Positions 5,986-37,881 are shown, numbered from the stretch's first letter. The stretch is 64,000 bases of DNA from Candidatus Falkowbacteria bacterium RIFOXYC2_FULL_36_12 (GCA_001778235.1 MFGJ01000007.1:264331-328330); one strand, 5' to 3'. The notes: a model not told the origin generated them from the letters alone. Numbers and translations are program-made.

Positions 5986-7215
5986 TCACATCATTTTCTT
6001 CCGAATAAATGCGGGGATATCCAATTCATCATCATCAGAATCTGTGCTCTCTGGTTCACGCTGAATAGGTTTAGCAGATGGTCGAACTTGACTAGGCTCG
6101 CGCATTGAGCGAGAAGAAGAAACCGGAACTTCGCTAATAGCTGGTGCAGAAAAAGGATTATTGGTAACATCATCATCATGTTTGACATCATCGTCTTCGG
6201 GCCTTGCTTGGAAATAATTTACGGGTTCGTGATTTACCTTTAATAAATTGTCTTTGGTAATTTTCTCATCAAAACCTGTGGCAACAACTGTAATTTTTAT
6301 ATTATCTTTTAATTTTTCATCGTTGACTGCACCAAAAATAATCTTGGCATCTGGATCAACTGATTCAGTAATTATTTTGGCAGCTTCACTAACTTCATAC
6401 ATGGTTAGATTTTCACCACCTGCGATTGTAAACAATATTCCTTTTGCGCCTTCAACGGAAATTTCAAGTAGTGGACTAGAAACGGCTGCCTTAGCGGCTT
6501 CAATCGCGCGATTATCGCCAGATGCTATCCCCATACCCATAAGCGCTGAACCACTAGATTTCATGATTGCTCGCACATCGGCAAAATCGACATTAATCAA
6601 ACCCGGTAAAGTAATCAACTCGGAAATACCCTGGACCCCCTGACGCAATACTTCATCAACAACTCTAAAGGCTTCAATAAGTGGGGTTTTTTTATCAATA
6701 ATCTGCCAGATTCGATCATTTGGAATTGTTATCAGGGTATCAACCTTGCTACTAAGATCTTTCAACCCCTCTTCGGCAATACGCCGTCTTGGACCACCCT
6801 CAAAAGAAAATGGTTTGGTAACAACGGCAATAGTTAAAATACCCATTTCGCGTGAAATTTCAGCAATAACAGGAGAAACTCCAGTACCTGTGCCTCCACC
6901 CAAACCACAAGTAATGAAAAGTAAATCCGTACCTTTTAGCATTTCCCTGATTTCATTTTGAGACTCTTCAGCTGATTTTCGGCCAAGTGATGGATCCATA
7001 CCTGCGCCCAAACCGCGTGTAGTAGTGCGACCAACATGAATTTTCTGTTGAGCCAGACTGTTTTGCAGGGCCTGGAGATCAGTATTGACAGCGATATACT
7101 CAACACCCTTGACCTCTGATGCGATCATACGATTTATTGCCGCTCCCCCTCCACCACCGACACCAACTACTTTTATTTTGGCAAAGGTTTCTATTTCCGG
7201 TTTAAATTCTGGCAT
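5986..7215 (-). CDS. ftsZ: cell division protein FtsZ
   Basis: GGGTGTG tubulin signature. The N-terminus is VGVGGGGGAAINRM. The acidic C-terminal tail ends DIPAFIRKK. Confidence 0.95.
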   Translation of the reverse strand: MPEFKPEIETFAKIKVVGVGGGGGAAINRMIASEVKGVEYIAVNTDLQALQNSLAQQKIHVGRTTTRGLGAGMDPSLGRKSAEESQNEIREMLKGTDLLFITCGLGGGTGTGVSPVIAEISREMGILTIAVVTKPFSFEGGPRRRIAEEGLKDLSSKVDTLITIPNDRIWQIIDKKTPLIEAFRVVDEVLRQGVQGISELITLPGLINVDFADVRAIMKSSGSALMGMGIASGDNRAIEAAKAAVSSPLLEISVEGAKGILFTIAGGENLTMYEVSEAAKIITESVDPDAKIIFGAVNDEKLKDNIKITVVATGFDEKITKDNLLKVNHEPVNYFQARPEDDDVKHDDDVTNNPFSAPAISEVPVSSSRSMREPSQVRPSAKPIQREPESTDSDDDELDIPAFIRKKMM

Positions 7216-7272: not shown

Positions 7273-8523
7273 TTATGAAATTAAAGATTTGAACCATTTT
7301 TTTGCTCCAGAAACAACATCTTTCATTGAACTAAGTTTTCCGCTAAGATCAAATTTGCTCTTACCTTTTTGGTCAAGCATTTGGTAACCCCAGAGGACTA
7401 AACCAAGCGGATTGACAAAGGAAACATCATTGACCTTATCTATGGCTGTTTGGAAACTTTGAACGCTGCCAACTGAAACAGGCAACATTGTTTTTCTCTT
7501 GGCAATTTCATTAATTCCTTTTAATTTTGCGCCACCGCCAACTAGAACTATTCCAGCCGGCAATAACCCTGCTCGACCAATTTTCTGTAACTCATTATCA
7601 ATTTTCTCAAAAATTTCTTCTGCCCGCGCCATTATTATCTCGGTAATATATCTTCTGCTAAATTTTTGGTCGTCACCACCTAAATCTTTTAAATTTATTT
7701 CATCTGTTTTTTCTATCCCATCAAAATTTGCCTGACCAAATTCCAGTTTGACTCTCTCGGCAACTTCAACTGATGTCTGCAAACCAATAGCCAAATCAGC
7801 TGTAATGTGATCAGAGCCAATGGGAAGAACTATAGAATGGATAACATCACCTTCTTCAAAAACCAATAAGTTGGAGGTGGAAGCGCCAATATCTACCAAA
7901 GCTACACCTAATTCTTTTTGTCGAACTGACAAAACTGCTTCTGAAGCGGCGAGCATTGATAAAACTAAATCATTTATATCCAAACCTGTACGATAAACAC
8001 ACTTGGTTAAATTTTTAATCTGGGAACTAAGGCCTCGGATAACTTGGGTTGTAACTTCAAGGCGTATCCCGGTCATGCCGATAGGATCCTTTATTCCAGC
8101 CTGACTATCAACAGAAAATGTTTTTGGTATTACATGAAGAACCTCATGATTTACTGGTGCAGCAACTGAACGAGCGGCATCGATTACACGCTCAATATCA
8201 TCTTCCTGAATTTCACCATTGGTTCGTGAAATAGCAATCACGCCATTGCTTTCCTGCGATGAAATATGAGTACCACCAATACTCACCCAGACATTTTCAA
8301 TTGGCAAACCAATCATTCGTTCAGCTTTTTCAAGACAAGTGGAAATACTGGAAACAGCGTCCTCAATGCTAACAATAGAACCCTTACTTATGCCTGCAGA
8401 GGGAACTTCAACTACGCCAATTATATTCAATTGTTGATTTTCCTGGCCACGCGCATATTGTCCTATGACAATTCTAATATTAGCAGAACCAATATCCAAG
8501 CCAGCGATTATTTCGTCAGACAT
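7273..8523 (-). CDS. ftsA: cell division protein FtsA
   Basis: Actin-like ATPase with N-terminal GLDIGSANIRIVIGQ. It sits directly upstream of ftsZ. Confidence 0.9.
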   Translation of the reverse strand: MSDEIIAGLDIGSANIRIVIGQYARGQENQQLNIIGVVEVPSAGISKGSIVSIEDAVSSISTCLEKAERMIGLPIENVWVSIGGTHISSQESNGVIAISRTNGEIQEDDIERVIDAARSVAAPVNHEVLHVIPKTFSVDSQAGIKDPIGMTGIRLEVTTQVIRGLSSQIKNLTKCVYRTGLDINDLVLSMLAASEAVLSVRQKELGVALVDIGASTSNLLVFEEGDVIHSIVLPIGSDHITADLAIGLQTSVEVAERVKLEFGQANFDGIEKTDEINLKDLGGDDQKFSRRYITEIIMARAEEIFEKIDNELQKIGRAGLLPAGIVLVGGGAKLKGINEIAKRKTMLPVSVGSVQSFQTAIDKVNDVSFVNPLGLVLWGYQMLDQKGKSKFDLSGKLSSMKDVVSGAKKWFKSLIS

Positions 8524-8620: not shown

Positions 8621-8983
8621 TTAAAATAATGCAATTATTCTCGGCAAGAAAATCAAAAGACCTATAATTAGTGCTGAAAATGCGGTAATTAGAACAACTG
8701 AAGAAGTGATGTTTTTTATATCGTGAGCGTACAAATGAACTCTTGGTTTCAACATATCCACAAGCCGTTCAAAAACCGTATTCAGCATTTCCAAAACCAG
8801 AACAAATAATATGAGGAGTATTATGATAATCCACTCCCAGACTTTAAGTTCAAAGATAAAGCCCGAAATAATAATTGCTAAAGCAATCAGAAGCTGAATC
8901 CGGAAATTTTGTTCACTGCGGAAAACTGTGTAAAAGCCTTTGAAGGCAAATTTGAAGCTTTTTAACAAGCGATTTAGTTGCAT
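8621..8983 (-). CDS. dgkA: diacylglycerol/undecaprenol kinase family (DgkA-like)
   Basis: 120 aa with 3 TM helices. FRSEQNFRIQ and LEMLNTVFERLVD match DgkA motifs (E..NTA.E). Confidence 0.6.
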   Translation of the reverse strand: MQLNRLLKSFKFAFKGFYTVFRSEQNFRIQLLIALAIIISGFIFELKVWEWIIIILLILFVLVLEMLNTVFERLVDMLKPRVHLYAHDIKNITSSVVLITAFSALIIGLLIFLPRIIALF

Positions 8984-8991
8984 AAAAAAAT

Positions 8992-9417
8992 TTAATAAAT
9001 CTGATTTAATATTTTTTGTTCAAGCGTCTCCATCATCTCTGCTTCAGCTTTTTTTAGGTGGTCATAGCCGAATAAATGAAGCAACCCATGTAGATATAAT
9101 GTAATAAATTCTTGCTGAACTGAATGTTTTTTTTCTTTTGCTTGTTTTTTGGCCTGAACAAGGCAAATCAAAATTTCTCCTATAAAAATCGCTTTATTAA
9201 TTTTGTCATTGTCTTCAAATGACAAAACATCGGTGACATAATCCTTTTTCCGATATATTCGATTGAATTGTCTTATTTTAGCCGGGGAAACAATAGCAAG
9301 AGAAAGGTTGAAATTTCCTTTCAATGATAATTTCTTCTGGACAATTTTATTAATTTTTTCAACTAGCTTTTTGGGATAAACAAAAACAACTTGTTTATTC
9401 AACTCAACAATAATCAT
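8992..9417 (-). CDS. ybeY: rRNA maturation endoribonuclease YbeY
   Basis: The HGLLHLFGYDH motif is H..H....H. 141 aa. Confidence 0.85.
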   Translation of the reverse strand: MIIVELNKQVVFVYPKKLVEKINKIVQKKLSLKGNFNLSLAIVSPAKIRQFNRIYRKKDYVTDVLSFEDNDKINKAIFIGEILICLVQAKKQAKEKKHSVQQEFITLYLHGLLHLFGYDHLKKAEAEMMETLEQKILNQIY

Positions 9418-9420
9418 ATA

Positions 9421-10368
9421 TTATTCAGTAAAAATAAAGCTCTGGGCAATCAAGGCAAAAAGATTTGGATAGCTGGCTTTCTGTTTCAAACCAATGTTGT
9501 AGGAAACCACATAAACCTGGTTTGCTTTGGAAAAATAGTAACGAAATCCGTCTGGACTGATAATACCTTTTACACCTTGCTTATTGTCGAAATCAACCAA
9601 TTGTGCAATATCGGCCTCTGAATCCTGCGACAAATACCATTGTTTTAGATCCTGTAAAGACTCATTTTGCACCACAAGAATATTAACAAATTCTCCGGTT
9701 GGTGAAGTAAAAACAACTTCACGATTATCACGCTCTACTGCCCGAGCAAACCAAGCTTTTGGATAAAAAACATCATAATCATAATTTGGATTAACAAAGG
9801 TTGCTACCAGGTCAGAAAATTCCAATTTTTCACCAACCTCAAGCGGAGTGTATAAATTTAATAATTCATCACCATCGAGATAACTATCAGCATCAGTGTC
9901 TGGTTTATTCATATCTGTATTGATTAGCAATTCTTCAGCGTCGGTAAGACCATCTGCGTCAGCATCTGCATCATGAATATCAGCTAATTTTATCATGACC
10001 GGAACAATTGGAATGATTGGGACAACTGGCTCATCTGGCTGTTCAACTATAGGAATATCAACAATTGGTTTAGGATTTTCGACAACTGGAACCTCAATAA
10101 TTGTTGAGTTAGATGTAGTGTCAGCATAATTCAAATAAACCAAATAGGATAATAAGCAAATTATTATAAGCAAGCTAAAAACAACCACGACAGTCATTGC
10201 CTTATTGCGTTTTTTGGGAAAAGGTTTCCCTGGTTTTGTTACAATTTTTTCTACAATTCGGGTTTCTATCTTTGTCTGTTTTTCCTCGGGGTTAACGCCA
10301 TAAAACTCTAGTGGCATAACATGAATTGTGTCAGGACTATTTTGTTTTTCTGTCTTAGTTTGAACCAT
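9421..10368 (-). CDS. single-pass membrane protein with an Asp-rich Ca-binding-like segment
   Basis: A TM segment (VVVVFSLLIIICLLSYLVYL) followed by a Pro-rich stretch. DADADADGLTDAEELLINTDMNKPDTDADSYLDGDE resembles TSP3-like repeats. Confidence 0.45.
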   Translation of the reverse strand: MVQTKTEKQNSPDTIHVMPLEFYGVNPEEKQTKIETRIVEKIVTKPGKPFPKKRNKAMTVVVVFSLLIIICLLSYLVYLNYADTTSNSTIIEVPVVENPKPIVDIPIVEQPDEPVVPIIPIVPVMIKLADIHDADADADGLTDAEELLINTDMNKPDTDADSYLDGDELLNLYTPLEVGEKLEFSDLVATFVNPNYDYDVFYPKAWFARAVERDNREVVFTSPTGEFVNILVVQNESLQDLKQWYLSQDSEADIAQLVDFDNKQGVKGIISPDGFRYYFSKANQVYVVSYNIGLKQKASYPNLFALIAQSFIFTE

Positions 10369-10374
10369 AACTAT

Positions 10375-10986
10375 TTATAAATTTAATAACTTACCTGGTC
10401 CATTTGGATTGTAGCCATTTTTTACTTCTTCACCATCGGGATAAGTATCACCGTCAGTATCAACTTTTAGCGGATTGGTCTCGTAAAGCTGTATTTCCTG
10501 ATAATCGGACAAACCATCATCATCAGTATCTGCTTTCAGAGGATTAGTGTTAAATAAAGTTTCTTCATTGTCCTTCAGACCATCTCCATCTGTGTCAAGG
10601 TCTACATCAACTTGGGTATCGTCTGTAGCAGGAATGGTCACGGATAAATCAGAATCTGTTGGTGTGGTTGCTTCAATGTCAGAATTGTTTGCAGTATTTG
10701 TATCATCAATGGGATCAGAGTTATCAGAAACAAATAAACCAGTACCAAAAACAGAAAAAGCCCCGGCTGCGACTACAAGAAATAGAAAAATTAAGACCAC
10801 AATCAAAATAATTTTGCTACTACTCTTTTTGGTTATAGGTGCCTGATAGTCAAACTGCTGTTCAGGTTGTGCCAGTGGCTCTGCACCAACAACTGGTTGT
10901 AAATTCTCGGACTGTGGTTTCACCTCCTCATTATTAGTGACTGGAGCTTGCTGCAAATTTTGCTCGGATTTTGGATCATCAAACAT
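10375..10986 (-). CDS. single-pass membrane protein with three thrombospondin-type-3-like Ca-binding repeats
   Basis: A TM segment (IILIVVLIFLFLVVAAGAF). The repeats DTDGDGLKDNEE / DTDDDGLSDYQE / DTDGDTYPDGEE follow the DxDxDGxxDxxE pattern. Confidence 0.5.
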   Translation of the reverse strand: MFDDPKSEQNLQQAPVTNNEEVKPQSENLQPVVGAEPLAQPEQQFDYQAPITKKSSSKIILIVVLIFLFLVVAAGAFSVFGTGLFVSDNSDPIDDTNTANNSDIEATTPTDSDLSVTIPATDDTQVDVDLDTDGDGLKDNEETLFNTNPLKADTDDDGLSDYQEIQLYETNPLKVDTDGDTYPDGEEVKNGYNPNGPGKLLNL

Positions 10987-11117: not shown

Positions 11118-14100
11118 TTAAAATGAAATATTTATATCTGGGTTGTTACTAAATGAATCATAATAACCTTTCAATATTCCTTCTAGTTTATAATCTAACT
11201 GGGCTGAATTGAAAGAATTAAAGGTATACCAATAAACATAGTCTCGGCCAGAGAAAGGATGGGAACTTCTAAATGAATTTGATTGGTATTCTTGAGTTTC
11301 AGAATTAAAACAAGTTTTTGGATCGGTTCCAGTACGACAAAGAGAACAAATTGATTGATTATTTACTGTGAAACAAGAATCTGAACTGGTAAAACATTTT
11401 CTTCCATTATTGGTGTTATCACAGCTAACACCATTATATTCAGGCAATGAACTTGGCTCATAACTAGCAAATGAATTTACTGGGTCAACAGAAAGTGCCC
11501 GACCTAATACATTGGCAAATTCAGCCTGCCAACTAGGCCAAGGACTATAAACATTGCTTCGCAAATAAGTCCCTGATTCAAGTTTTGGCAAAGTTGAATG
11601 TTGAGTATAGTAACTGGATAACAATTGTCGAATTGAAACTATATCATTGACGCGTTTAATATCTCTTTTTATAGCCCAGAGTTCATCAGAAGTCGAGACA
11701 TTGGTGTTTAAACTAATATTATCAACTAATTGAGAAAATATATTGATGGTATTTGGACTGGCTTGTTGATTGTAGCCGAGTACATATATATTGTTGAAAA
11801 GTCTGCGATTGATTGTTCCTTGAGTTTCAACAGAAGCTTTATTACCACCAGAAATATAAATTGTATTACCATCCTGAACTCCATAATAACATATTTCAGT
11901 TTGATAGAGAGGATCTGTGGCACAATCAACTTTTATTTCAGTAACCACGGTTTTGGCATTTGGAACATTAGTCAAATACCAGTCCCTGGCTGATAAATTT
12001 CCAGGATTAGAATACACACGAAGAGAAATAGCATCGCTTGAAAAATCATTGGTGATATCTGCTTGGCGCAACAAGAAATATTGATGTAATAAATTTTGTT
12101 CATTTGCAGCTTGACCAGCTGGAATAACGCTAATAGCAGGAAGATCATCATCCAGGACATTTGACTGTCCGGCATCTCGGCAATATGGCATTTGGAGGTT
12201 GTCAAAAGGAAAATCAAGTGTCTGTGGATTTTCACAAAGAAAAGTTGTAACTATTCCAGAACCTTCAATAGTTCGACCTGATTCACCATAAAATTGATCC
12301 CGAGCAATATGAGCTTTGGCAGTAATGGTGGCTGTGCCATTTTGGGTACCGGCTGAAGCTTCAAACTCATCTGGGGCAGGATTAGTGATACTGACAATAT
12401 TTAAGCCACCATCATCTATGCGCCAATTGTCCCAAGTCCAAGAATAATCTGCTGTTGAGAAAAGAATATTTGAGCCTGCTTTGGCGAAACGATGAACTGA
12501 CCAAGTTTCATTTACTGTTGTGGCATATTTTTCCGCAGGATCAACACCAACAGAATCAAAATGACAAATATCAGTACTGACATCAAAGGTGAACTCCTGT
12601 TTAGGGATGCTCATCCTACAATTATTTTTCAAGTCTTTTAAGATTATCTTATACCTAGTTGATTTTAATATTTCATTTGGTTGAATAAATATACTTGTTT
12701 GTGTCTTGTCTGAAATTGGTCTGATGGTTATTTGATATTGTCCTTTATCAAGCTTGCACCAATCTAAGGCACTGGCTGAAGAAATAAATATTTTTCTAAA
12801 CCAATCCTTTATTTGACCAATAAATGACAATGATCCTGTAGTACAGTTTTCAGCTTGATATTCGATCTCAACATGTGAAGATGCGGTAGAAGTGCCTGTC
12901 AACAAATCATCAAGTAAAAGATCATAACTGACAAAGATGGCACTGTTACGGCAAACTGGATTAGCTAAATCAGGGCTGACCATAGTAGCTCTAGGTGGAT
13001 TGTTCGGATCGCAACCAGGAGGTGTTGGACCGGCCTGCCCTGAATAAATGTATTTTAATTCACCAGAATCCTGCAAACTAATGCCGGTAGCTCCAGCTGT
13101 TTTTTCTTCAGCAGTAACATTTTCAGTTAAGGTTGCCCTGACCATGGCAGTTTCTTCACTCGTAGCAATGCTCAAATAACCCAAAACAGTAATTAGAGAT
13201 TTTGGACTGCCAAAACTGGCACCAGAATCATCACCTTCGCATTGATAATCTTCACCTGGATCAACTGAACCATCATTGCAGGATGTACCAGCAATAATGG
13301 CTGAACCATTGTTCAGACATTCAGAGGTACACCAGCTTGGGGCAATGCAACTACAACCAGCTGAACCATAACTGCAAGATTTTCCAGCATCTTGACAAAT
13401 ATACTCACATTCTTCCTCGTAGCCATCATATGTTTCACCCAAACCATTGCCACAACAATTTCTGGTTGTTGACTGATCGCAAGCTGGAAAACCTGACAAT
13501 AAACAAGTATTACTACAAATAGCATCACTGTATTGCTCGCAAGAACATCGGGAATCTCGAGTAGGATTACAAGTACTACCATTTGAATCAAGACAATTGA
13601 CTGAAATTGGCTCACATTCTTCACCAGATTCAATAGTACCATTACCACAAATAGCAACGCGATCTGATGATTTTATATTGCTACCACTATATAAACATTT
13701 ATTATTTAATCCAAATTTTTGGTTTAATTGACCAAAATCATCATCCTCACCAAGTTCTTTCAAACTATTACCACAGGTGAATCCACTAGCGGTCGAACCT
13801 TCATTTAGACAAACTGCACTGCAACCATCACCTGAAGCATTGTTACCATCGTCACAATCTTCTGAAAAATTGATTGTGCCATTGCCACAACAAATTGCAC
13901 CTGAATCCAAAACTGAATCGCCAAAACAAGCTGTGGTGCCGGAATATAAACATATATCAGTACAGCCATCATTATTATTTACATTACCATCATCACATTC
14001 CTCACCAACTTCAACCAATGAGTTGCCACAAACAGCTTGATACGGCTCTGAACCGAGATTCAAGCAATTTTCGGTACAACCTGGATTTATTTGTTGTAAA

Positions 14101-17100
14101 TATATTGATTCAAATATAGATATTAATTTCCTGTGGGCCGGATTGTTGGCATCATAACTAACTGAAGAATTCAAATTTATGGCTTTGGTTGGATTTGAAA
14201 ATTCATCCCAACGCCAATTATAATCATAGGGATTTAAACGCTGACCAGCTGCGCTACAAATGTCTGGGGCTCCATAGGATGAAGCACTATAAACGATTTC
14301 ATCGCCTGCTCGCACGGAGGTATATTGACCTGGATTTACATCCACTCGATCAGGGCGACAATAAGCCTCTCCATCACGAACTTTGAAAACAAAACTATAG
14401 GCATCAAAAGCTGTAATCTGGTCAGTTGATTCAGTCTGGGTAACACAGCTTGAACAGCCTGAAGGAAAACTACAAATACAATCTGGATCACCGGCAGTAC
14501 AGGTGCTTCGTTTGGAGATACTGCATTCAGTCTGACAAATCTGGCGTTCAGATGGACAGCTATAATTCGGGATACTGGTAATCGGAGAACAAGTACAAGC
14601 TGAAATATTACCAGTACAAACTTGAGCTGGATTTTCTGCACAATGAGCGACTTTTATACAATTTCCTTTGACTGGATCAGGACTGAAACATTGTTCAGTT
14701 GGCATTTTTTCAAAAGTACCAACTTCCAAACAATTACATCCAACCGAAGAAGTGGTACAAGCTAAACCGATTGAGCCATCGGCCAATTGACAAGCTTTTT
14801 GTGCTTGGCAAGTACAAGCAGGAGCATCAGCGGAACAGAACTTTGTAGTATCTTGAGTACAGACTTTTGGTTCAATACAAGTGCAATTTAAAGAATCTTG
14901 GGTACATGTCTGACTAATATTTTCCTTGCAATATGACGCGCAAACAGGAGAGTCACAGGTCTTTGGGTCAGAACAAGAACAAGCAGTACTTATAATATCA
15001 TCGGTCGTGGTATCTAAATATTGATTACAAGTAGACAGAGCCTGACTACCGGTAAAAATCACTCTATCAACCTTCGAACAATTGGTTGCTTCGCATTGTT
15101 CAGATAAACTAAGTGTCGGGTAAGTTTCGAGTACTCCATTGCCACAACAAGCACCAAATTCAGAGTTATCACAATCCGGGAAACCTACTAAACGACAATC
15201 ATTTGAACAAACTGGGTTGTTGCCGAGTGAACAAACACAACCATCTGCACCAAAATCACATGAATTACCAGCTGTATTTTTACAAATTGCTTCGCATTGT
15301 TCTCCAGCATCTGCCTCAAGTACACCATTGCCACAAGTGCCGATTTCAGCTTGAGTATTGAAATTTAAACCAGTTAAATTCTTATTGCTAATGCTCAAAA
15401 TATTATCTTTTATAACCAAACGATAGTAAACTGATGGTTCAAGTGCAGTATTAGGGGAAACGGTTAAACGGTTACAGACATTAGTGCCAGCAATCGTTGT
15501 TTCTCCGGTTGTACTGTCACAAAGTATTTCAGGCGAAGCAGAATTATTTGACAGAAGATTGTCCTGACCAACTACAGAAAGACAGTTTTGATCATTACAA
15601 CGATATAAACTTATATTTGTATTGTTATTAAATAAAGACTCTTTTTTTATAAAAGTATTAAATTCAGCACCAAGTTCAGCGTTGCGACAAGCCTGATCAC
15701 AATTTGGCCAGAAATCAATTACCTTTGGGTCAAGAAGCTGAACTGATAAATTGGCTGAATCTGAAACTGTGTTACTGGAAAGGACAGCAGAAGCGGTGAT
15801 ATCAACTGGGTCATTGGCTGGGGTTTCAGGGTTTGTAACTCCAGACAATAAACCGAATAATGCTTCGTCACCATTTAATCCAGCAGAAGAAAGTCTCTCA
15901 ATAAGTCCCAGATATTTTGACTCTATTGACCAACTCCAATCGTATAATGAAACATTGATTATAGAACAATTCTGACCTTGACCATTAACAACATATTTTT
16001 GCGTATCCGCAATTGAATCAAGAACTCCATCTGAAGGATTTACCACAACAGAATTAATAGAACAGTCTTGTGATCCAGTATGAAAACGCCAAACATAATC
16101 ATTGCTCATCTGCTGAACCTCTCCATTTAGAGGAGAACTGCTAAGACCGGCTGGCACTTTTACCTGATACCAAAAGTCAGCACCAAGAGTTCCATAATTT
16201 TTTAGAGAAACTTCAGTGATTTCTTCGCCTTCAAAATTACTATTTGATAATTCATAAATATCTGGTTCACCTTCAACAACTCCTCGGACACTAAAACTGT
16301 AGGTGGAAGATTCACAACGATCAGCTTCGCAGGTATCAAGATTGCATTGGACTCCTGGTAAAATACATTTTCTAACCTCAATTTGATTACCCTCTTCGAG
16401 AAACGAACTTGGAGCCATTTCCATATTAAAAGAAAAAGCAATAACAGAATTTGGACAAGCACTGCCACTGTTTTTGGTTGGTGAAGGAGATTCATTGTAT
16501 TCTCCAGCTGAACAAGTTCTTTCAATAATTTTCGGCACTCGAGGAATTCTACCAGTGCTAAAGTACCAACCATATTCACAAGAAGTAACCTCGGCCTGAC
16601 ATTCAGAAGTAAGAGAACAATAATTGTCATTACAACAAACCTGACCAGCACCACAACTTCCAGCACTGCAACGCCCAACAGTAAATTGGGCTGGATTACT
16701 GTCCGCACCATTGCGAGAAACATAAACATTGCCTGTCTTGGCTAGAGCCGGGACAACCACTCCCTCAATTGATGCGTCGGTCCATTCAACATCGGTTAAA
16801 GCAAAACCTTCAACAATTTCATAAACACCATCTGATTTAAAGAATTTTATTTGTGCAGGACTGTTGCCAAAGCCAGTACCGACAATATTTATCTTTGTGC
16901 CGGGAGATCCATTGTTGGGACTAAGCGAACAAATTCCAGGAGAAACAGGTAAATCATTATTGACTACAAAATCTTTGGAATCCACACCTTTGACACCTGA
17001 AACTTGTAACACAAATGAACCATTGTCTAATTGTTCTGGAATTTTTATTTTTAGTTGATTATCTGACCAGAAATTTTGACAAACGCTGTCAGCTAAAAAG

Positions 17101-19127
17101 CTATCTGTACCTGACAAAAAGTTGACTGTTCCTGAACTGCCAAAATTTTTGCCTTCAATGGTAATTAATTGTCCGGAAGGTGCTGGGTTTTGGGAAATTG
17201 AAATTATTTCTAGGGCATCGGCTGATTTTTCAACCCTAAAATTGACAGGGTTACTGTATAAGCCAGGGAAGTTGTCCCTGCCAACTTGGACAGGAACATT
17301 GCCTGGAGCTAAATTTGGAATACGAATACCAGTAATAGTGGTGTTAGTTCGAGAAACTTCTGAAGTTGTAAATTGGTTGAAATAAACTTCACCAGTTGAA
17401 CCAAAGTTTTCGCCAACTGCATTGGCTAGAGAAGTAACTTCACCTGAAGGTAAATTTGATTGCTGATTGACAACAGAACATAAACCAATCCAATTGCTAT
17501 TATCAGCATTAATACTATAATTCCCTTTCCACCCCGGAGACTCAAGGTCTGAAGTGTTATTATAATTTCCATTTTTATCGGTTAAGATAATCGGACCATT
17601 GCCATTTTCAGGTACACGAACCACAACCTGTGTATCAAGCCATGAGCCTGTACGGCCACAAGCCAACTGTGCCTCCTGACCATTAAAAGTAATTTGGCTC
17701 TGATCACTAAATGATCTGAAATTTTTTCCTCGGAGAGTAACAAAAGAACCAACTGGACCAGAAGCTGGCAGGACACTTTCAATCACGGGATAAGGCCAAA
17801 GCTGACAAGATGTTTCACAAGTTGTAACTCCATTTAATTCAGTACAATTTATACCTTCTTGACAAACATAATCACAGCCCTCTGGATTAGTACATGCTGG
17901 ACACTGGTCAACTTCACAATCAGGCAAGGTGCAATCAAAATCATTAGCATCATTAAAGCAACTAGATGAAGCGACCAAAAATCGTTTAGTTGTTTGGCCA
18001 GAGTTGTCACTAAGATCAAGAGCAGAAAAAGTCGAAGTATGCCAACCGAGTTCGAAACCGGTGGTTTGAGAATTTATAATAGATAAATATTCAGACTGAC
18101 TATCTCCAGAAAGTGAAAATAGCTGGCAACTATCTGCTAAATCTGTTTGCTTGGTCGGGCATAGTTCAACACTTTGCAAGCCACCAACATCATTGGCGCT
18201 GACATCAGCGGCAATATCAAAATTTTGCTGTACAGGACTTGGCGACAGAGAATTAATAGAAACCTCTGGATTGTCAGTGTCACAGAAGCTACTGGTAGTA
18301 AATGCTGAACTCTGACAATAACCCTCAAGCTGTGAGGCACAATTTATTGTCTCACCTGTCTGATCTTGGAGATTTAAAACCTTTACAATATATGATGATC
18401 CTGAATCAAAACAATTTGGTTTGTTACAGCCTTCTGGGCAAACTGTATCTGGGGTAAAGGTTATAATACGGTTTAAAACTGAAATTTGACCGGCTACTGC
18501 CTGCTCTTCCCCATCAACAAGTTTGTAAACCTTTATATTGTCTTTGGCGTTTTGATAATCATTGTCTGATAACGGAACCCGACCAAATGGATAGGTGACT
18601 TTTACCAGTGAAGTAATTGGACGATCATTTCCTCGGGGAGAAATACTGACTGAAAAAACCACACCAGTTCCTCCACTTCCGCCGGCATTGTCAATCGGAG
18701 TAGACTGCTGACCTGAACCAGTAGCCTCTGATAATCTATTTATAATAAAACTTGTTAGGGCAAAGGCTGATAAAATAATTGCTAGACCAATAACACCATT
18801 AATAATCCACTGTTTGGCTTTGTCAACACCAGCTTCACTACCACCAGAGATCATGTAAAGAAATCCGCCATATAAAATTACGGCAATAGTTACTACGCCT
18901 AAAAAGCCTAGAAATATTCTAATTACGCGACCAACAATTATCCGAGGATCTTCAGCTCCCAGTACGGTGGCTTCACCAACCAACTGTGTACCTTCAACAA
19001 TGCTATTTTGGGCATGGGCAATAACGGGAAAAACAAAAAAGATTGCAACTACCATAAACATTAGCGCAACTAACAAACCTGAAAGTGTTTTTTGTTTTAT
19101 CATTTTATTTTTATTTAATATGGGCAA
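11118..19127 (-). CDS. giant (2669-aa) Cys-rich secreted/surface protein with a pilin-like N-terminal anchor, IPT/TIG domains and Myxococcus-type Cys-rich repeats
   Basis: Single 8-kb ORF. The N-terminus has a signal/TM segment, then GRVIRIFLGFLGVVTIAVILYGGFLYMISGGSEAGVDKAKQWIINGVIGLAIILSAFALTSFIINRL, a two-helix hairpin like VirB2/TrbC pilins. There are multiple IPT/TIG-like modules (PVIESVLPASGPVGSFVTLRGKNF, ISISQNPAPSGQLITIEGKNFG, CSLSPNNGSPGTKINIVGTGFG). Many CGNG..E.GE.CDDGN repeats of the TIGR02232 type are present. Confidence 0.8.
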   Translation of the reverse strand: MPILNKNKMIKQKTLSGLLVALMFMVVAIFFVFPVIAHAQNSIVEGTQLVGEATVLGAEDPRIIVGRVIRIFLGFLGVVTIAVILYGGFLYMISGGSEAGVDKAKQWIINGVIGLAIILSAFALTSFIINRLSEATGSGQQSTPIDNAGGSGGTGVVFSVSISPRGNDRPITSLVKVTYPFGRVPLSDNDYQNAKDNIKVYKLVDGEEQAVAGQISVLNRIITFTPDTVCPEGCNKPNCFDSGSSYIVKVLNLQDQTGETINCASQLEGYCQSSAFTTSSFCDTDNPEVSINSLSPSPVQQNFDIAADVSANDVGGLQSVELCPTKQTDLADSCQLFSLSGDSQSEYLSIINSQTTGFELGWHTSTFSALDLSDNSGQTTKRFLVASSSCFNDANDFDCTLPDCEVDQCPACTNPEGCDYVCQEGINCTELNGVTTCETSCQLWPYPVIESVLPASGPVGSFVTLRGKNFRSFSDQSQITFNGQEAQLACGRTGSWLDTQVVVRVPENGNGPIILTDKNGNYNNTSDLESPGWKGNYSINADNSNWIGLCSVVNQQSNLPSGEVTSLANAVGENFGSTGEVYFNQFTTSEVSRTNTTITGIRIPNLAPGNVPVQVGRDNFPGLYSNPVNFRVEKSADALEIISISQNPAPSGQLITIEGKNFGSSGTVNFLSGTDSFLADSVCQNFWSDNQLKIKIPEQLDNGSFVLQVSGVKGVDSKDFVVNNDLPVSPGICSLSPNNGSPGTKINIVGTGFGNSPAQIKFFKSDGVYEIVEGFALTDVEWTDASIEGVVVPALAKTGNVYVSRNGADSNPAQFTVGRCSAGSCGAGQVCCNDNYCSLTSECQAEVTSCEYGWYFSTGRIPRVPKIIERTCSAGEYNESPSPTKNSGSACPNSVIAFSFNMEMAPSSFLEEGNQIEVRKCILPGVQCNLDTCEADRCESSTYSFSVRGVVEGEPDIYELSNSNFEGEEITEVSLKNYGTLGADFWYQVKVPAGLSSSPLNGEVQQMSNDYVWRFHTGSQDCSINSVVVNPSDGVLDSIADTQKYVVNGQGQNCSIINVSLYDWSWSIESKYLGLIERLSSAGLNGDEALFGLLSGVTNPETPANDPVDITASAVLSSNTVSDSANLSVQLLDPKVIDFWPNCDQACRNAELGAEFNTFIKKESLFNNNTNISLYRCNDQNCLSVVGQDNLLSNNSASPEILCDSTTGETTIAGTNVCNRLTVSPNTALEPSVYYRLVIKDNILSISNKNLTGLNFNTQAEIGTCGNGVLEADAGEQCEAICKNTAGNSCDFGADGCVCSLGNNPVCSNDCRLVGFPDCDNSEFGACCGNGVLETYPTLSLSEQCEATNCSKVDRVIFTGSQALSTCNQYLDTTTDDIISTACSCSDPKTCDSPVCASYCKENISQTCTQDSLNCTCIEPKVCTQDTTKFCSADAPACTCQAQKACQLADGSIGLACTTSSVGCNCLEVGTFEKMPTEQCFSPDPVKGNCIKVAHCAENPAQVCTGNISACTCSPITSIPNYSCPSERQICQTECSISKRSTCTAGDPDCICSFPSGCSSCVTQTESTDQITAFDAYSFVFKVRDGEAYCRPDRVDVNPGQYTSVRAGDEIVYSASSYGAPDICSAAGQRLNPYDYNWRWDEFSNPTKAINLNSSVSYDANNPAHRKLISIFESIYLQQINPGCTENCLNLGSEPYQAVCGNSLVEVGEECDDGNVNNNDGCTDICLYSGTTACFGDSVLDSGAICCGNGTINFSEDCDDGNNASGDGCSAVCLNEGSTASGFTCGNSLKELGEDDDFGQLNQKFGLNNKCLYSGSNIKSSDRVAICGNGTIESGEECEPISVNCLDSNGSTCNPTRDSRCSCEQYSDAICSNTCLLSGFPACDQSTTRNCCGNGLGETYDGYEEECEYICQDAGKSCSYGSAGCSCIAPSWCTSECLNNGSAIIAGTSCNDGSVDPGEDYQCEGDDSGASFGSPKSLITVLGYLSIATSEETAMVRATLTENVTAEEKTAGATGISLQDSGELKYIYSGQAGPTPPGCDPNNPPRATMVSPDLANPVCRNSAIFVSYDLLLDDLLTGTSTASSHVEIEYQAENCTTGSLSFIGQIKDWFRKIFISSASALDWCKLDKGQYQITIRPISDKTQTSIFIQPNEILKSTRYKIILKDLKNNCRMSIPKQEFTFDVSTDICHFDSVGVDPAEKYATTVNETWSVHRFAKAGSNILFSTADYSWTWDNWRIDDGGLNIVSITNPAPDEFEASAGTQNGTATITAKAHIARDQFYGESGRTIEGSGIVTTFLCENPQTLDFPFDNLQMPYCRDAGQSNVLDDDLPAISVIPAGQAANEQNLLHQYFLLRQADITNDFSSDAISLRVYSNPGNLSARDWYLTNVPNAKTVVTEIKVDCATDPLYQTEICYYGVQDGNTIYISGGNKASVETQGTINRRLFNNIYVLGYNQQASPNTINIFSQLVDNISLNTNVSTSDELWAIKRDIKRVNDIVSIRQLLSSYYTQHSTLPKLESGTYLRSNVYSPWPSWQAEFANVLGRALSVDPVNSFASYEPSSLPEYNGVSCDNTNNGRKCFTSSDSCFTVNNQSICSLCRTGTDPKTCFNSETQEYQSNSFRSSHPFSGRDYVYWYTFNSFNSAQLDYKLEGILKGYYDSFSNNPDINISF

Positions 19128-21163
19128 AATTCACCTTCTTGGACATTTATTCCTTGTTCAACTTCACCACAACAGGCCTGCCCCTTATTCATTGGACCAC
19201 AACCTGGGCCAGAACATGGATTAAAACAATTACCACTCATATCTTGAATACCAGACAATATTTTTGGATAAATAATTGGAACATCAAGATTATCTTTTGC
19301 TTCAGGAAAAGCACCATGATTTATTACTGCCACTTTATCATTGGACAGACAAAAGATACTACCATCGGCAGAAACTTGCTTTGGGCAATATAAACTACCC
19401 ATAAACCAACTATTCCAATCATCAGAAACAATAATTAAATTATCATTGGTAACTGTTGATGGATCCAATGATTTTGAAAAGGTGGCGCTGACCAATGAAT
19501 TTGGTTCAACTCCGCTAGATTTATCAGCTCCATTTTCTGGAGTAACGCTAACAATGGTTGGAGCGACTAAATCAAAAGTATTGGAAGTTGCAAAATTCCA
19601 AGAAAAATTGTCATTATCTCCACTAGTTGATCCATTTGCTTTGCCTAATCGGCCATCTGTATCCAGAGCATTTAAAGCTGCGTCAACAATACCTCCGGCT
19701 GGATACAGCGCAACGGTTGGACCATTGCCAAGGAGATTTGATACTGGAACAGATTTTACCAGGCCTGAAATGGTGGCGTTTGCAGGAAAACAGGTAACTA
19801 CCTCGCCACAAGAGTTGTGCAAAGGAGCCTCATCACCACATGAACCTGAAGGCCTATAAACCAAAGAACGATACTGATTGATTCCAGCAGTAATATTACC
19901 ATTTAGAATCTCGCTTGAAGCTTGATCTAGAATTAAAAATTCTGCACCTGTTGAAGTAGCATCAAGAACTAAACTAACAGGTGGAATAACTGCTTCGCTG
20001 AAATCAACTCTAACTCGGGTATTTCTAGGAAAACCAGCGCCACCAGCATTACTGATTGCAATTGGCTGACCAGAGGCATCCAAATCAACAGGATAAACAG
20101 TAGTAATAAAAGGAGGTGTAACATCAATATTGGTAGTTGTAGTAAATTTCCAACGATAAACAGAGTCAGTCCTACCACTGAAAATACTGGTGTTACCATT
20201 AAAACTTTTGACATTTCCCGTAACCAAAGCAAAATATGAAACATCAGAGAATGGTGAACCTAGATGCGAATCAGCACTATTACCATATGGATTAAAGACT
20301 AATGTTTTGAAATCAGGTGTAAGACTAACAATACCATCGCTAATAAACAAAGAATCGTTTGGCTCATTACCTGTCCAATTGTTACAAATATTAGGCTGGC
20401 TACGATTGGCGTCACTATAATCTGCCGGAGCGCTTGAACCAGCTGGATAAAGGGTATCGCAGGCGCGATAAATCCCAAGAGATGAAATATCTAAATCACC
20501 CTGACAAACACAATTTTGTCCTGGCGCGATGGATGAACAAGCAGCTTGGGTTTCAATATCAATACAACTCATGGAATCATTAGCGATAATACTCTCTGGA
20601 TCAATTGGTTGTTTGAAAGTTACCATGATAACAGTATTGCGAGGTACACTAGCGTTATTGGCAGGATAATGATCTTGGATAACACCACCCAATCCCCCGC
20701 TACCTAGACCCGGTGGATTATAGCCATTTGCACCATAAGATCCGGGTGTACCAGTAGCTTGAGCAAGAGCATTAATAATAAATGAAACAATCGCAAAAGC
20801 TGATGCAATAATCGCAAGACCAATAAAAGCATTGATCAAAATCTGTTTTGCTTTACTAACTTTGGTTGGGTCACCGCCAGAAGTCATGTAAAGAAATCCT
20901 GCATATAAAACCAAAACCAAAGCAATGGTTCCAAGTAAACCCAAGAAAACACGAATAACTCTGGCAACAATAATTCTTGGGTCTACATTGCCCAAACCTG
21001 TTGCCTCACCAACAGCATCGGTGCCTTCAACAATACCAGCTTGACCGGCATGAACAGGAGAAATCAGCAAAAAAAATCCAGCCAGAGCAGAAGCAATGAC
21101 AAGCATTAAAATAACTGTTGTTCCTTTTTTCTTATAATGAGAAAAACTTAAAGATGTTATCAT
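19115..21163 (-). CDS. 682-aa Cys-rich surface protein, paralogous pilin-like N-terminal anchor
   Basis: The N-terminus ARVIRVFLGLLGTIALVLVLYAGFLYMTSGGDPTKVSKAKQILINAFIGLAIIASAFAIVSFIINAL is nearly identical in pattern to the giant protein. The C-terminus is Cys-rich. The gene overlaps the downstream giant gene by 13 nt, which suggests an operon. Confidence 0.75.
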   Translation of the reverse strand: MITSLSFSHYKKKGTTVILMLVIASALAGFFLLISPVHAGQAGIVEGTDAVGEATGLGNVDPRIIVARVIRVFLGLLGTIALVLVLYAGFLYMTSGGDPTKVSKAKQILINAFIGLAIIASAFAIVSFIINALAQATGTPGSYGANGYNPPGLGSGGLGGVIQDHYPANNASVPRNTVIMVTFKQPIDPESIIANDSMSCIDIETQAACSSIAPGQNCVCQGDLDISSLGIYRACDTLYPAGSSAPADYSDANRSQPNICNNWTGNEPNDSLFISDGIVSLTPDFKTLVFNPYGNSADSHLGSPFSDVSYFALVTGNVKSFNGNTSIFSGRTDSVYRWKFTTTTNIDVTPPFITTVYPVDLDASGQPIAISNAGGAGFPRNTRVRVDFSEAVIPPVSLVLDATSTGAEFLILDQASSEILNGNITAGINQYRSLVYRPSGSCGDEAPLHNSCGEVVTCFPANATISGLVKSVPVSNLLGNGPTVALYPAGGIVDAALNALDTDGRLGKANGSTSGDNDNFSWNFATSNTFDLVAPTIVSVTPENGADKSSGVEPNSLVSATFSKSLDPSTVTNDNLIIVSDDWNSWFMGSLYCPKQVSADGSIFCLSNDKVAVINHGAFPEAKDNLDVPIIYPKILSGIQDMSGNCFNPCSGPGCGPMNKGQACCGEVEQGINVQEGEFCPY

Positions 21164-23577: not shown

Positions 23578-24210
23578 TTATTTATTTTCAGAAAATTGCT
23601 CATAGCTTATTGGACTAAAAATCTTTACCCGAGTCAACGGCCAACCACGAAGCCAAACCTTGCCAACAATATTGCCTCGGCCAACAGGTCCGAACACCCT
23701 TGAATCCAAACTGTGTTCCCGATTGTCGCCTAAAACATAATACTCATCAGCTTCAAGATTCCAAACTTTATCACCTAATGTTCTGGTAGAATTATCAAGA
23801 TAATCCATTTCATCCAATAAATATTTTTTTTCTCCTTCATCAGTGTATACAAAGACAAAACCATCCCTAACTTCAACTTTTTCTCCAGGTAAGGCAATAA
23901 CACGCTTTATAAAAAATTGGGACGGATCCTTTGGGTAGCGAAAAACAATAATATCACCTCTTTCAGGCTGACTAATACGATAAGACAACTCATCAATAAT
24001 CAAATATTCATCATCATAAAAACTTGGTTCCATTGACGCACCTTTTACATAAAATGGTTGAATTAAGAAGTATCGAACAGGAATAATAATAGCAAGAGCA
24101 ATGCAAACCACCTTGACTAGGTCCCAAAAAAAGTATGCTACCTTTTTCCCTGGGCTAATATCTTCATCATAATCCTGGAATTTATATTTATCGGGGTTTT
24201 TGCTTAACAT
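23578..24210 (-). CDS. lepB: signal peptidase I
   Basis: GASMEPS (Ser box), IKRVIALPGE (Lys box) and GDNREHSLDSR. Confidence 0.85.
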   Translation of the reverse strand: MLSKNPDKYKFQDYDEDISPGKKVAYFFWDLVKVVCIALAIIIPVRYFLIQPFYVKGASMEPSFYDDEYLIIDELSYRISQPERGDIIVFRYPKDPSQFFIKRVIALPGEKVEVRDGFVFVYTDEGEKKYLLDEMDYLDNSTRTLGDKVWNLEADEYYVLGDNREHSLDSRVFGPVGRGNIVGKVWLRGWPLTRVKIFSPISYEQFSENK

Positions 24211-33552: not shown

Positions 33553-33861
33553 TAGTGCAGGAGTCAGGATTTTAACCCCGATTAAAGTTGATGATAGGGT
33601 ATCACTGAACCCCTGCAATTATAATTATAACTAATATTGTTGGTTAAACAAAATTTATTGCCCTTTTTTCAAAAAAACAAAAAGTCCTCGGAACAATCCA
33701 AGAACTTTTCGTAGATCGGGATATCCCCTATCATCAACATCAATATAATAGCAAAGTTTAGATGATTTGTCAAGACTTAAAGCTGAAATGGCGTTGCCTT
33801 GATAAAAACTGGATTTTTTGTCATAATACAATATAATATAAATATAAAGATAAAAGAGGAT

Positions 33862-37077: not shown

Positions 37078-37881
37078 ATGTGTAATCTTATGAAAAAAGT
37101 TTTTTTGGCATTGATAGTATTGTTGTCTTTAATTATTGCGCCGAGTCAAGTACTAGCAGTCAGTGCAGGAAACGCCTGTACCGGCGGACCTGGGAATGGA
37201 AATTGTGATGCAGGTTTATTTTGTGGAGTACTGAATGAATGTGAACCAAAAATAATTACCGGCGGAAGCTTAAATTGTTTTGAAAATTTTGAATGCCAAT
37301 CAAATAACTGCAATCCGGAGTCTAATGAATGTGAAGCCGCTACAACACCAACTCCAACTGATGTCTGTACTGCTGACACGGATTGTCCAAGTAATAAATA
37401 TTGTCTGATCGCTGGAGACGGGACAACATCCTGCGTAAATAAATTAGCCAATGGTGCGACTGGTTGCTTTCGAAATAGTAATTGTGTGTCAAACAATTGC
37501 GATCTTGCAACTGCAACTTGCCAAGCGGCAACAGGTGCTCCCACTCCACCCGTTGGATCAACTACACCGCTGGGGGCAGAGACAACGCCAGCGATCGAAG
37601 CAGAAACTGAAACTGAAACAACTAGACTGGTGAATCCGCTTGGGACTGATTCTCTACAAGTGATTATTGGTCGAGTAATTAGATTTTTCATTGGAATTGC
37701 TGGGACTACTGCTTTGGCGGTTTTGGTCTATGGTGGTATTATTTTATTAATCTCTGGCGGTCGAGATACTTATATAAAAAAAGGTAGAAATGCAGTAATT
37801 TACTCGGTTTTGGGCTTAGCAATTATTTTCTCAAGCTATATTTTAGTTAAATTTATTATTGCGGCCTTATCACAAGCATAA
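37078..37881 (+). CDS. secreted Cys-rich protein with a C-terminal pilin-like (VirB2/TrbC-type) hairpin
   Basis: A signal peptide, then 4 Cys-rich modules (C..C......C, e.g. CFENFECQSNNCNPESNECE). The C-terminus IGRVIRFFIGIAGTTALAVLVYGGIILLISGGRDTYIKKGRNAVIYSVLGLAIIFSSYILVKFIIAAL matches the N-terminal module of the 2669-aa and 682-aa proteins. Confidence 0.6.
   Translation: MCNLMKKVFLALIVLLSLIIAPSQVLAVSAGNACTGGPGNGNCDAGLFCGVLNECEPKIITGGSLNCFENFECQSNNCNPESNECEAATTPTPTDVCTADTDCPSNKYCLIAGDGTTSCVNKLANGATGCFRNSNCVSNNCDLATATCQAATGAPTPPVGSTTPLGAETTPAIEAETETETTRLVNPLGTDSLQVIIGRVIRFFIGIAGTTALAVLVYGGIILLISGGRDTYIKKGRNAVIYSVLGLAIIFSSYILVKFIIAALSQA

Follow-up and report, generated by a model that had tools for sequence, protein, structure and literature searches.

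The pilins of Pfam family PF18895, which belong to type IV secretion systems (T4SS), have been reported from 1,948 patescibacterial assemblies, often as arrays of 2-11 genes near virB4 (PMC12102498, PMC10633639, PMC12857230), and the pilin array of Southlakia epibionticum is essential (PMC10633639). Here we describe far larger proteins with a related hairpin, encoded in a 64-kb stretch of DNA (64,000 nucleotides (nt), called the window below) from Candidatus Falkowbacteria bacterium RIFOXYC2_FULL_36_12, an ultra-small groundwater bacterium. Candidatus Falkowbacteria is placed by the NCBI taxonomy in the Parcubacteria group of Patescibacteria, and it is the NCBI label under which the paper on class ABY1 recruited its ABY1 contigs (PMC11809585). 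Two adjacent genes on the minus strand, encoding proteins of 682 and 2669 amino acids (aa), form with the next two genes a cassette that adjoins ftsA and ftsZ, and we see about an even chance that in this ABY1-type Patescibacterium the four products make up a lineage-specific surface or adhesion complex anchored in the membrane.

Gene 1 (19115..21163, minus strand) encodes the 682-aa protein, in which a signal peptide and a pilin hairpin precede immunoglobulin (Ig)-like ectodomains of the Big_5/SbsA type. Gene 2 (11118..19127, minus strand) encodes the giant, in which the signal peptide and pilin hairpin are followed by Ig-like/TIG domains, Cys-rich repeats and, at the C-terminus, a conserved region; it has 2669 aa if translation starts at the TTG at 19127, or 2661 aa from the ATG at 19103 chosen by another gene caller. 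A third gene with the same module, unlinked to the cassette, is located at 37078..37881 on the plus strand, and its 267-aa product begins with a signal peptide, has an ectodomain rich in Cys (17 residues) and carries the hairpin at its C-terminus (nt ~37636-37878). For this small gene the other gene caller starts four codons later, at the ATG at 37090 (MKKVF..., 263 aa), which yields a more typical signal-peptide n-region and is probably the true start. The coordinates of the three open reading frames (ORFs) are exactly those of the initial annotation, made from the same DNA. Its 13-nt overlap between genes 1 and 2 exists only with the TTG start of the giant and becomes an 11-nt gap with the ATG start, and its description of the two as tandem giant Cys-rich proteins suits the giant (139 Cys, 5.2%) and not the 682-aa protein, which is neither giant nor Cys-rich (2.5% Cys).

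The three proteins share a module of about 80 aa, in which a signal peptide is followed by two hydrophobic helices flanking an SGG..KAK loop. In BLASTP comparisons with the 2669-aa protein, the 682-aa protein was 47% identical over 173 aa (E=3e-37) and the 267-aa protein 44% identical over 91 aa (E=3e-21). A hidden Markov model (HMM) built from the three copies was run against the 567 six-frame ORFs of the window and recovered these three alone, with E values of ~1e-40 to 1e-42; the next best match had E=1.8, and thus no fourth copy was detected in this set. The HMM placed the module at aa ~56-136 of the 682-aa protein (20756..20998, minus strand; residues 72-129 in the Pfam match) and at aa ~56-135 of the giant (18723..18962, minus strand). 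Hydropathy analysis showed hydrophobic segments at residues 61-96 and 106-133 of the giant and 63-95 and 105-137 of the 682-aa protein, and all three proteins begin with a hydrophobic, signal-peptide-like N-terminus, for which cleavage is predicted, as read by eye, after VHA (aa 39) in the 682-aa protein and after AHA in the giant. These data bear out the single conserved module proposed by the initial annotation, as well as its position after the signal peptide in the two large proteins and at the C-terminus in the 267-aa protein. An AlphaFold2 model of the latter, computed from the single sequence with a predicted local distance difference test (pLDDT) score of 57, placed the hairpin helices at residues 190-226 and 236-266.

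Comparison with Pfam indicates that the module belongs, by its sequence, to the VirB2/TrbC-type pilin hairpin family, as the initial annotation had guessed. PF18895 (T4SS_pilin), with a gathering threshold of 26.6 bits, matched the 682-aa protein with 31.1 bits and the 267-aa protein with 33.9 bits, and the module of the giant itself remained under the threshold, with 19.3 bits at full length and 24.4 bits for the N-terminal 150 aa. We extended the comparison to 31 modules, using the first 150 residues of 20 giants and of 10 mid-size orthologues together with the module of the small protein: all 31 matched PF18895 (best E=3.4e-13) and 17 matched PF04956 (TrbC/VirB2) at E<=0.05 (best E=1.6e-7), and for one orthologue a PF04956 match was already on record. 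The profile similarity to VirB2/TrbC, whose absence the initial annotation had considered as an objection, is therefore present in the module family. The module family is not new: Pfam already curates it as PF18895, and in Patescibacteria it is known from short pilins.

A very improbable alternative is that the module is a generic double-transmembrane anchor, its pilin match reflecting hydrophobic composition only. In line with it, none of the three window copies reached E<=0.1 with PF04956, the giant fell below the PF18895 threshold, and unrelated membrane families (DctQ, FixQ, CbtA) also gave matches. The latter were weak (E>=1e-4) and restricted to at most 7 of the 31 modules, which contrasts with the 31 PF18895 and 17 PF04956 matches, and the module profile matched 69,195 cluster representatives. 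In addition, the signal peptide, the hairpin and the conserved polar loop match the pilin layout in register. Solved structures gave no match to the module in either search, which would fit a plain anchor: the sequence profile matched nothing in the PDB, and a Foldseek search of the PDB with the 267-aa model returned only Cys-knot noise and no match at E<=0.001. With a model of pLDDT 57, and a bare hairpin being poorly discriminated in such a search, the fold comparison does not bear on a VirB2 fold either way.

Another concern of the initial annotation was that the large ORFs might be broken by frameshifts in other assemblies. Four independent assemblies contain the giant gene at full length (8,010 nt) with 100% identity, and a fifth does so over 7,443 nt, up to the end of the contig. 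Because the gene is intact and identical in independent assemblies, the frameshift objection falls away; we also rejected an artefact or a pseudogene, given the intact giant ORF and the synteny of the loci described below. One of the six assemblies of the same population (locus L004, 8385-16399, corresponding to 11118-19127 of the window; 99.86% identity) carries a 5-nt indel that splits the giant ORF into 2487 and 168 aa, either an assembly error or a strain variant. The exact 682-aa protein is present on 22 contigs from several samples. In GenBank the 682-aa protein and the giant are OGF30694.1 and OGF30693.1, recorded for Candidatus Falkowbacteria bacterium RIFOXYB2_FULL_35_7 / RIFOXYA2_FULL_35_8, both under the label 'hypothetical protein'.

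The strongest point, which the initial annotation had missed, is that the cassette is syntenic across a class-level lineage, adjoining ftsA and ftsZ. In every distant homologue with readable context we found, on one strand, the order (lepB-hisS-)S21-yqeY-[643-751 aa pilin/Big_5]-[giant]-[TSP3 protein(s)]-[~315-400 aa protein]-ybeY-dgkA-ftsA-ftsZ. The order was confirmed by tblastn across L007-L019, which represent 12 independent loci, since L013 is on the same contig as L008 and was counted once. Wherever a related locus extends far enough, a gene 1 orthologue (643-751 aa) is found at this position, and genes 3 and 4 follow the giant in every related locus. When one genome per species was scanned, at least 10 more loci came to light, in Falkowbacteria, Kuenenbacteria and metagenome-assembled genomes of the 'Parcubacteria group' and 'Patescibacteria group'; the ten genomes are a lower bound, and their alignment used a single peptide pattern. 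Across loci the giants are 30-48% identical, compared with 53-81% for FtsA/FtsZ.

In the window, the cassette genes are spaced 3-131 nt apart, and a consensus scan detected no terminator-like site on the minus strand in the 131 nt that separate the giant from gene 3. Downstream, on the same strand, are ybeY (8992-9417), dgkA (8621-8983), ftsA (7273-8523) and ftsZ (5986-7215); ybeY and dgkA, already named as neighbours by the initial annotation, have Pfam matches on record for identical and orthologous genes. Upstream of gene 1 is yqeY (PF09424; 21190-21636, minus strand), preceded by a promoter-like site (21679-21651, minus strand), with a terminator-like hairpin after the S21 gene (21736-21709, minus strand), both found by consensus scan only; a transcription unit could start upstream of yqeY. 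The gene for signal peptidase I, lepB (23578-24210, minus strand), is four genes upstream of gene 1, in the order lepB, hisS, S21, yqeY and gene 1. LepB is the enzyme that matures VirB2-type propilins, and its position before the cassette is kept in three distant loci, a link that may be coincidental. Five of the related records (L011-L014 and L018; CAZQEI01, CAYPSS01, CAYSUN01, CAZPYM01 and CAZAKN01) are titled 'uncultured Gammaproteobacteria bacterium', yet they carry the patescibacterial cassette and Falkowbacteria-like ftsA/ftsZ (66-76% identity), and the titles are probably mislabelled.

The ectodomain of the giant contains the two types of repeats recognized by the initial annotation. 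PF01833 (IPT/TIG) matched it with 72.1 bits (threshold 20.9; E=3.9e-20) in three stretches, the best at residues 447-521, and the repeat region extends over aa ~447-815 (16683..17789, minus strand), its end being read by eye from the repeated P.I.S..P..G......I.G..FG pattern. The acidic Cys-rich repeats CGNG..E.GEEC(D/E), at aa ~1700-1910 (13398..14030, minus strand), matched the Myxococcus-type Cys repeat TIGR02232 with 45.1 bits (cut-off 20.8) in two stretches, and four CG[ND]G...E[ED]C motifs are located at residues 1700, 1747, 1827 and 1892. The related Pfam family DUF4215 scored 18.4 bits, below its cut-off of 27. Counts of Cys per 100 aa showed that these repeats are embedded in a broader Cys-dense stretch, at aa ~1200-2000. 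The Ig-like part of the 682-aa protein was assigned by Big_5 (50 bits), a domain labelled in UniRef as SbsA (S-layer) Ig-like.

The last 379 aa of the giant (11121..12257, minus strand) form a conserved region that no Pfam family covers, consisting of a PsbP/Mog1-like domain followed by a long helix and a small Cys-containing beta domain. The C-terminal domain matches solved PsbP/Mog1/DcrB-like structures at 6-10% sequence identity. We found no LPXTG motif with hydrophobic tail at the C-terminus, which ends in ...SNNPDINISF, and the hydrophobic segments of the giant are N-terminal only.

The two partner genes encode predicted single-pass membrane proteins. Gene 3 (10375..10986, minus strand) specifies a 203-aa protein with calcium-binding TSP3 repeats, which matched PF18884 (TSP3_bac) with 55.2 bits (cut-off 25) and has one hydrophobic segment at residues 51-88 and two D.D.DG motifs. 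Gene 4 (9421..10368, minus strand) specifies a 315-aa protein with a hydrophobic segment at residues 54-84 and a weak TSP3 repeat. The initial annotation had described both as TSP3-like membrane proteins; this is clear for the first, and the second is below the PF18884 cut-off on its own (16.2 bits), while its orthologues have clear D.D.DG repeats. The 203-aa and 315-aa proteins also matched each other in cross-comparison. The C-terminal ectodomain of gene 4 (aa ~182-315, nt 9424-9825) is PsbP-like: hhalign of the gene 4 family alignment with that of the giant C-terminus gave a probability of 95.2% and E=2.9e-8, and the gene 4 family profile matched PsbP chain 2xb3_A (E=4.8e-4), the same chain as the C-terminal domain of the giant. 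Judged from these profile comparisons, the two domains are homologous. Since modules are common to genes 1 and 2 (hairpin), 3 and 4 (TSP3), and 2 and 4 (PsbP-like domain), the four genes are best read as one set of predicted membrane-tethered extracellular proteins.

To survey the family, a word-indexed homologue search with the module gave two matches and was too insensitive, and the module profile was instead run with HMMER against all 1.84 billion cluster representatives (E<=0.001), the source of the 69,195 matches given above; the protein classes were read from the best 150. Three classes were prominent among these 150: 20 giants of 2,263-4,654 aa, each carrying one module (residues ~30-135); 10 shorter proteins (600-872 aa) arranged in the same way as the giants; and many multi-module proteins. 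All 20 giants have in common the N-terminal hairpin and the last 300-380 residues with the PsbP/Mog1-like domain, and the insertions that distinguish them are located between these conserved parts. Laminin_G_3, absent from the giant of the window, is on record for P0083 and P0151. Extra blocks relative to the giant of the window also occur in P0091, P0109, P0115, P0120, P0135, P0137 and P0142, and several of these giants showed, by eye, DxDxDG-rich 'C.DG.DND.DG' repeats and long extensions past the conserved C-terminal domain.

Of the 151 proteins retrieved by the module search, 105 have at least two pilin hairpins in tandem within one ORF. Up to 17 hairpin stretches were counted by the search in the 1775-aa P0008, and up to 8, in the 820-aa P0003, by the stricter three-sequence profile. 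The literature that we searched describes arrays of separate pilin genes and not fused poly-hairpin proteins. The small pilins P0086 and P0111, the closest to the module, were dropped as evidence on T4SS linkage: they are on contigs of 0.6-2.4 kb and one is in the yqeY position, so that they are probably fragments of orthologues and uninformative on this point.

The module homology, the predicted topology elements, the domain content, and the gene order and its conservation are established, and from them a model of the complex can be proposed. The 682-aa and 2669-aa proteins would be exported by the Sec pathway and probably cleaved by signal peptidase. The VirB2-type hairpin would then hold each protein in the cytoplasmic membrane, with the short basic SGG..KAK loop inside and both ends outside, an orientation suggested by the positive loop and by passenger domains that can precede or follow the module. 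In this arrangement the long ectodomains, with their Ig-like, TIG and Cys-rich parts, would project from the cell beside the two single-pass TSP3 proteins, and the TSP3 and PsbP-like domains may provide lateral contacts within a putative complex; as gene 4 and the tip of the giant share the PsbP/Mog1-like domain, the partners probably touch through these domains. The most likely role of such a complex would be attachment to, or contact with, another cell or a surface. The variable length and domain content of the giants between conserved ends fits an interaction surface on a conserved chassis. The lack of T4SS genes nearby, the core-genome synteny, the adhesin-like variable ectodomains and the integrity of the genes support, at the level of sequence, a surface complex of this kind.

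Nevertheless, several observations weigh against a hairpin that acts simply as the anchor of a surface complex. Seven residues (L48, G69, Y78, G80, G88, G106 and I109) do not vary among the 31 sequences and the SGG/K.K loop hardly does, a degree of residue conservation that a plain anchor should not need. T4SS loci are reported to be common in ABY1 genomes (PMC12102498). Moreover, in the eight genomes compared, the hairpins of the mid-size protein and the giant of the same genome had a mean identity of 55%, against 47% for hairpins across genomes and 52% for giant-to-giant orthologues. In 300 neighbour-joining bootstrap trees the hairpins never grouped by protein type, and two same-genome pairs grouped in 98% and 65% of the replicates. 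The higher likeness within than between genomes, together with the lack of grouping by type, suggests that the hairpin may have a specific partner or assembly machine and do more than span the membrane; as the alignment is short (93 columns), this co-evolution result is suggestive only. We rejected recent gene conversion between the two hairpins of the window, because they are ~62% identical at the DNA level and share no long identical tract.

The same observations speak for the main rival reading, which we regard as rather unlikely though serious, namely that the proteins are true components of a T4SS pilus. The products of genes 1 and 2 would in this case be modular minor or tip pilins, loaded onto a VirB2-like pilus by a T4SS encoded elsewhere in the genome; the T4SS would extract the hairpin from the membrane and the pilus would display the ectodomain as an adhesin, a role played in other systems by VirB5 or PrgB. 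The hairpin truly belongs to the pilin family and keeps the conserved residues, and the hairpins of genes 1 and 2 appear to co-evolve. Furthermore, patescibacterial T4SSs are reported to possess VirB2-like pilins and no recognisable adhesin, with T4SS loci common in ABY1 (PMC12102498), and the pilin array of Southlakia is essential (PMC10633639). However, the genomic context argues in the other direction. A Pfam scan of 35 other ORFs in the 64-kb window detected no VirB4, VirB6, type IV coupling protein (T4CP) or other T4SS component family, and VirB4, VirB6 and T4CP were likewise absent from the 10-kb flanks of related loci. These 35 ORFs have a housekeeping-type Pfam match or none, and include nrdD, nrdR, lepB, hisS, engA, pth, dprA, topA, two relA/spoT paralogues, parAB, scpAB and guaB, so that the genes are set among housekeeping genes and not in a pilin array. 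A pilin extension of 2,500 residues is without precedent in the T4SS literature that we searched, and, to judge from solved conjugative pili, there would be room for it only at the tip or with very low stoichiometry. A bolder form of this idea, which we consider unlikely, is that ABY1-class Patescibacteria have converted the VirB2 hairpin into a handle for assembling giant adhesins: the T4SS would load the 680-aa and giant proteins onto or beside a VirB2-like pilus, where they would provide the 'missing adhesin' of the monoderm-type patescibacterial T4SS and make contact with the host cell; if true, these would be the first modular pilins in a type IV secretion system.

The fixed position of the cassette could also indicate a structural coat, that is, an S-layer-like layer or envelope scaffold with a housekeeping role in shape or division and not in host contact. 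The invariant place just upstream of ybeY-dgkA-ftsA-ftsZ, with tight spacing, the calcium-binding partner proteins and the SbsA (S-layer) label of Big_5 are compatible with this explanation, to which the C-terminal profile of the giant adds a marginal, not significant likeness to Lactobacillus S-layer domains (E=0.18). We nevertheless find it quite doubtful. S-layer proteins tend to be moderate in size and abundant and are usually not integral to the membrane, synteny alone is no proof of a functional link to division, and the giants diverge fast and gain and lose domains, which is better explained by interaction surfaces than by a scaffold.

In agreement with the initial annotation, the system is not known to have been experimentally characterised, and a search of open-access papers and bioRxiv yielded no account of giant ectodomains fused to a pilin hairpin, of the cassette or of its synteny. 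Both the module and the types of domain have been described before; new with respect to this literature are the architecture, the cassette of four genes and its constant location by ftsA/ftsZ. Patescibacterial genomes of this kind have about 1 Mb, and the maintenance of 8-14 kb in one gene plus three partners at a fixed place across a class-level lineage implies that such a protein is very likely central to the surface biology of the cell. This is of interest since Patescibacteria represent a large share of uncultured bacterial diversity and what is known of their contact with hosts comes almost entirely from Saccharibacteria. Until now the VirB2-type module has been discussed as a short subunit of pili only; here it is also the membrane-proximal module of very large, predicted surface proteins, and the hairpin together with the conserved PsbP-like end domain offers a sequence-defined target. 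The domain assignments also allow the annotation of OGF30693.1 and OGF30694.1 to be improved.

Other genes of the window deserve mention. Two adjacent RelA/SpoT-family genes (33799-35505 and 35542-37005, plus strand), encoding 568 and 487 aa with ~39% mutual identity, lie directly upstream of the 267-aa pilin-module gene. A 310-aa ORF (54120-55052, plus strand) combines dUTPase/dCTP-deaminase-like and dCMP/cytidine deaminase domains and looks like a nucleotide-salvage fusion. On the minus strand, at 51192-52550 and 52685-53980, we found adjacent class II aminoacyl-tRNA synthetases of the Asp/Lys/Asn type (452 and 431 aa) with OB-fold anticodon domains, presumably the aspartyl- and asparaginyl-tRNA synthetases or a non-discriminating pair.

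Among the described systems, the PF18895 pilins of the Southlakia epibionticum SEML1_0006-0019 array and of the Nanosynbacter TM7x array are of the same sequence family, layout and phylum as the module studied here (PMC12102498, PMC10633639). The members described so far are short, and their genes form arrays of 2-11, mostly close to virB4, whereas in the cassette the module is fused to ectodomains of 550 and 2,530 aa, within a housekeeping block and with no T4SS gene within 64 kb. With VirB2, TrbC and TraA the cassette proteins have in common a signal peptide, two hydrophobic helices and a short polar or basic loop, according to hydropathy and to cleavage sites read by eye. The precursors of these pilins have ~70-130 aa and the cassette proteins, with 682 and 2669 aa, are 5-25 times larger; in addition, the cassette lacks linkage to a mating-pair-formation apparatus, and its window copies miss PF04956. 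A weakly similar family is NF045849 (Mbov_0395), the pilin-like proteins of Mycoplasma integrative and conjugative elements, to which the 682-aa protein scored 28 bits, below the cut-off of 40. Its members are ~80-aa proteins of conjugative elements, and the likeness is that of a pilin-like protein associated with a monoderm T4SS.

A parallel in design comes from modular type IV pilins, such as PilB and PilC of Streptococcus sanguinis, in which an adhesive domain is grafted on a pilin module, so that one subunit of a filament can serve as an adhesin as well. The principle is the same as in the cassette, but their fold and assembly machine are unrelated, and they carry single grafted modules and not 2,500 residues. 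The giant, from a host-dependent organism, resembles the giant Ig-repeat adhesins (RTX, LPXTG) in being very long, repeat-rich and, by prediction, extracellular and adhesive, and differs from them in its anchor, which is an N-terminal pilin hairpin and not a C-terminal LPXTG, a type I secretion signal or a two-partner secretion domain. The PsbP/Mog1/DcrB-like domains share the fold of its C-terminal domain and of the gene 4 ectodomain at 6-10% identity, and their function differs widely among members. Finally, FhaB-type giant proteins without full-length homologues and with a presumed role in adhesion were described in Patescibacterium danicum, also of class ABY1 (PMC11809585); the cassette family is unrelated to these giants, and it is conserved and syntenic.

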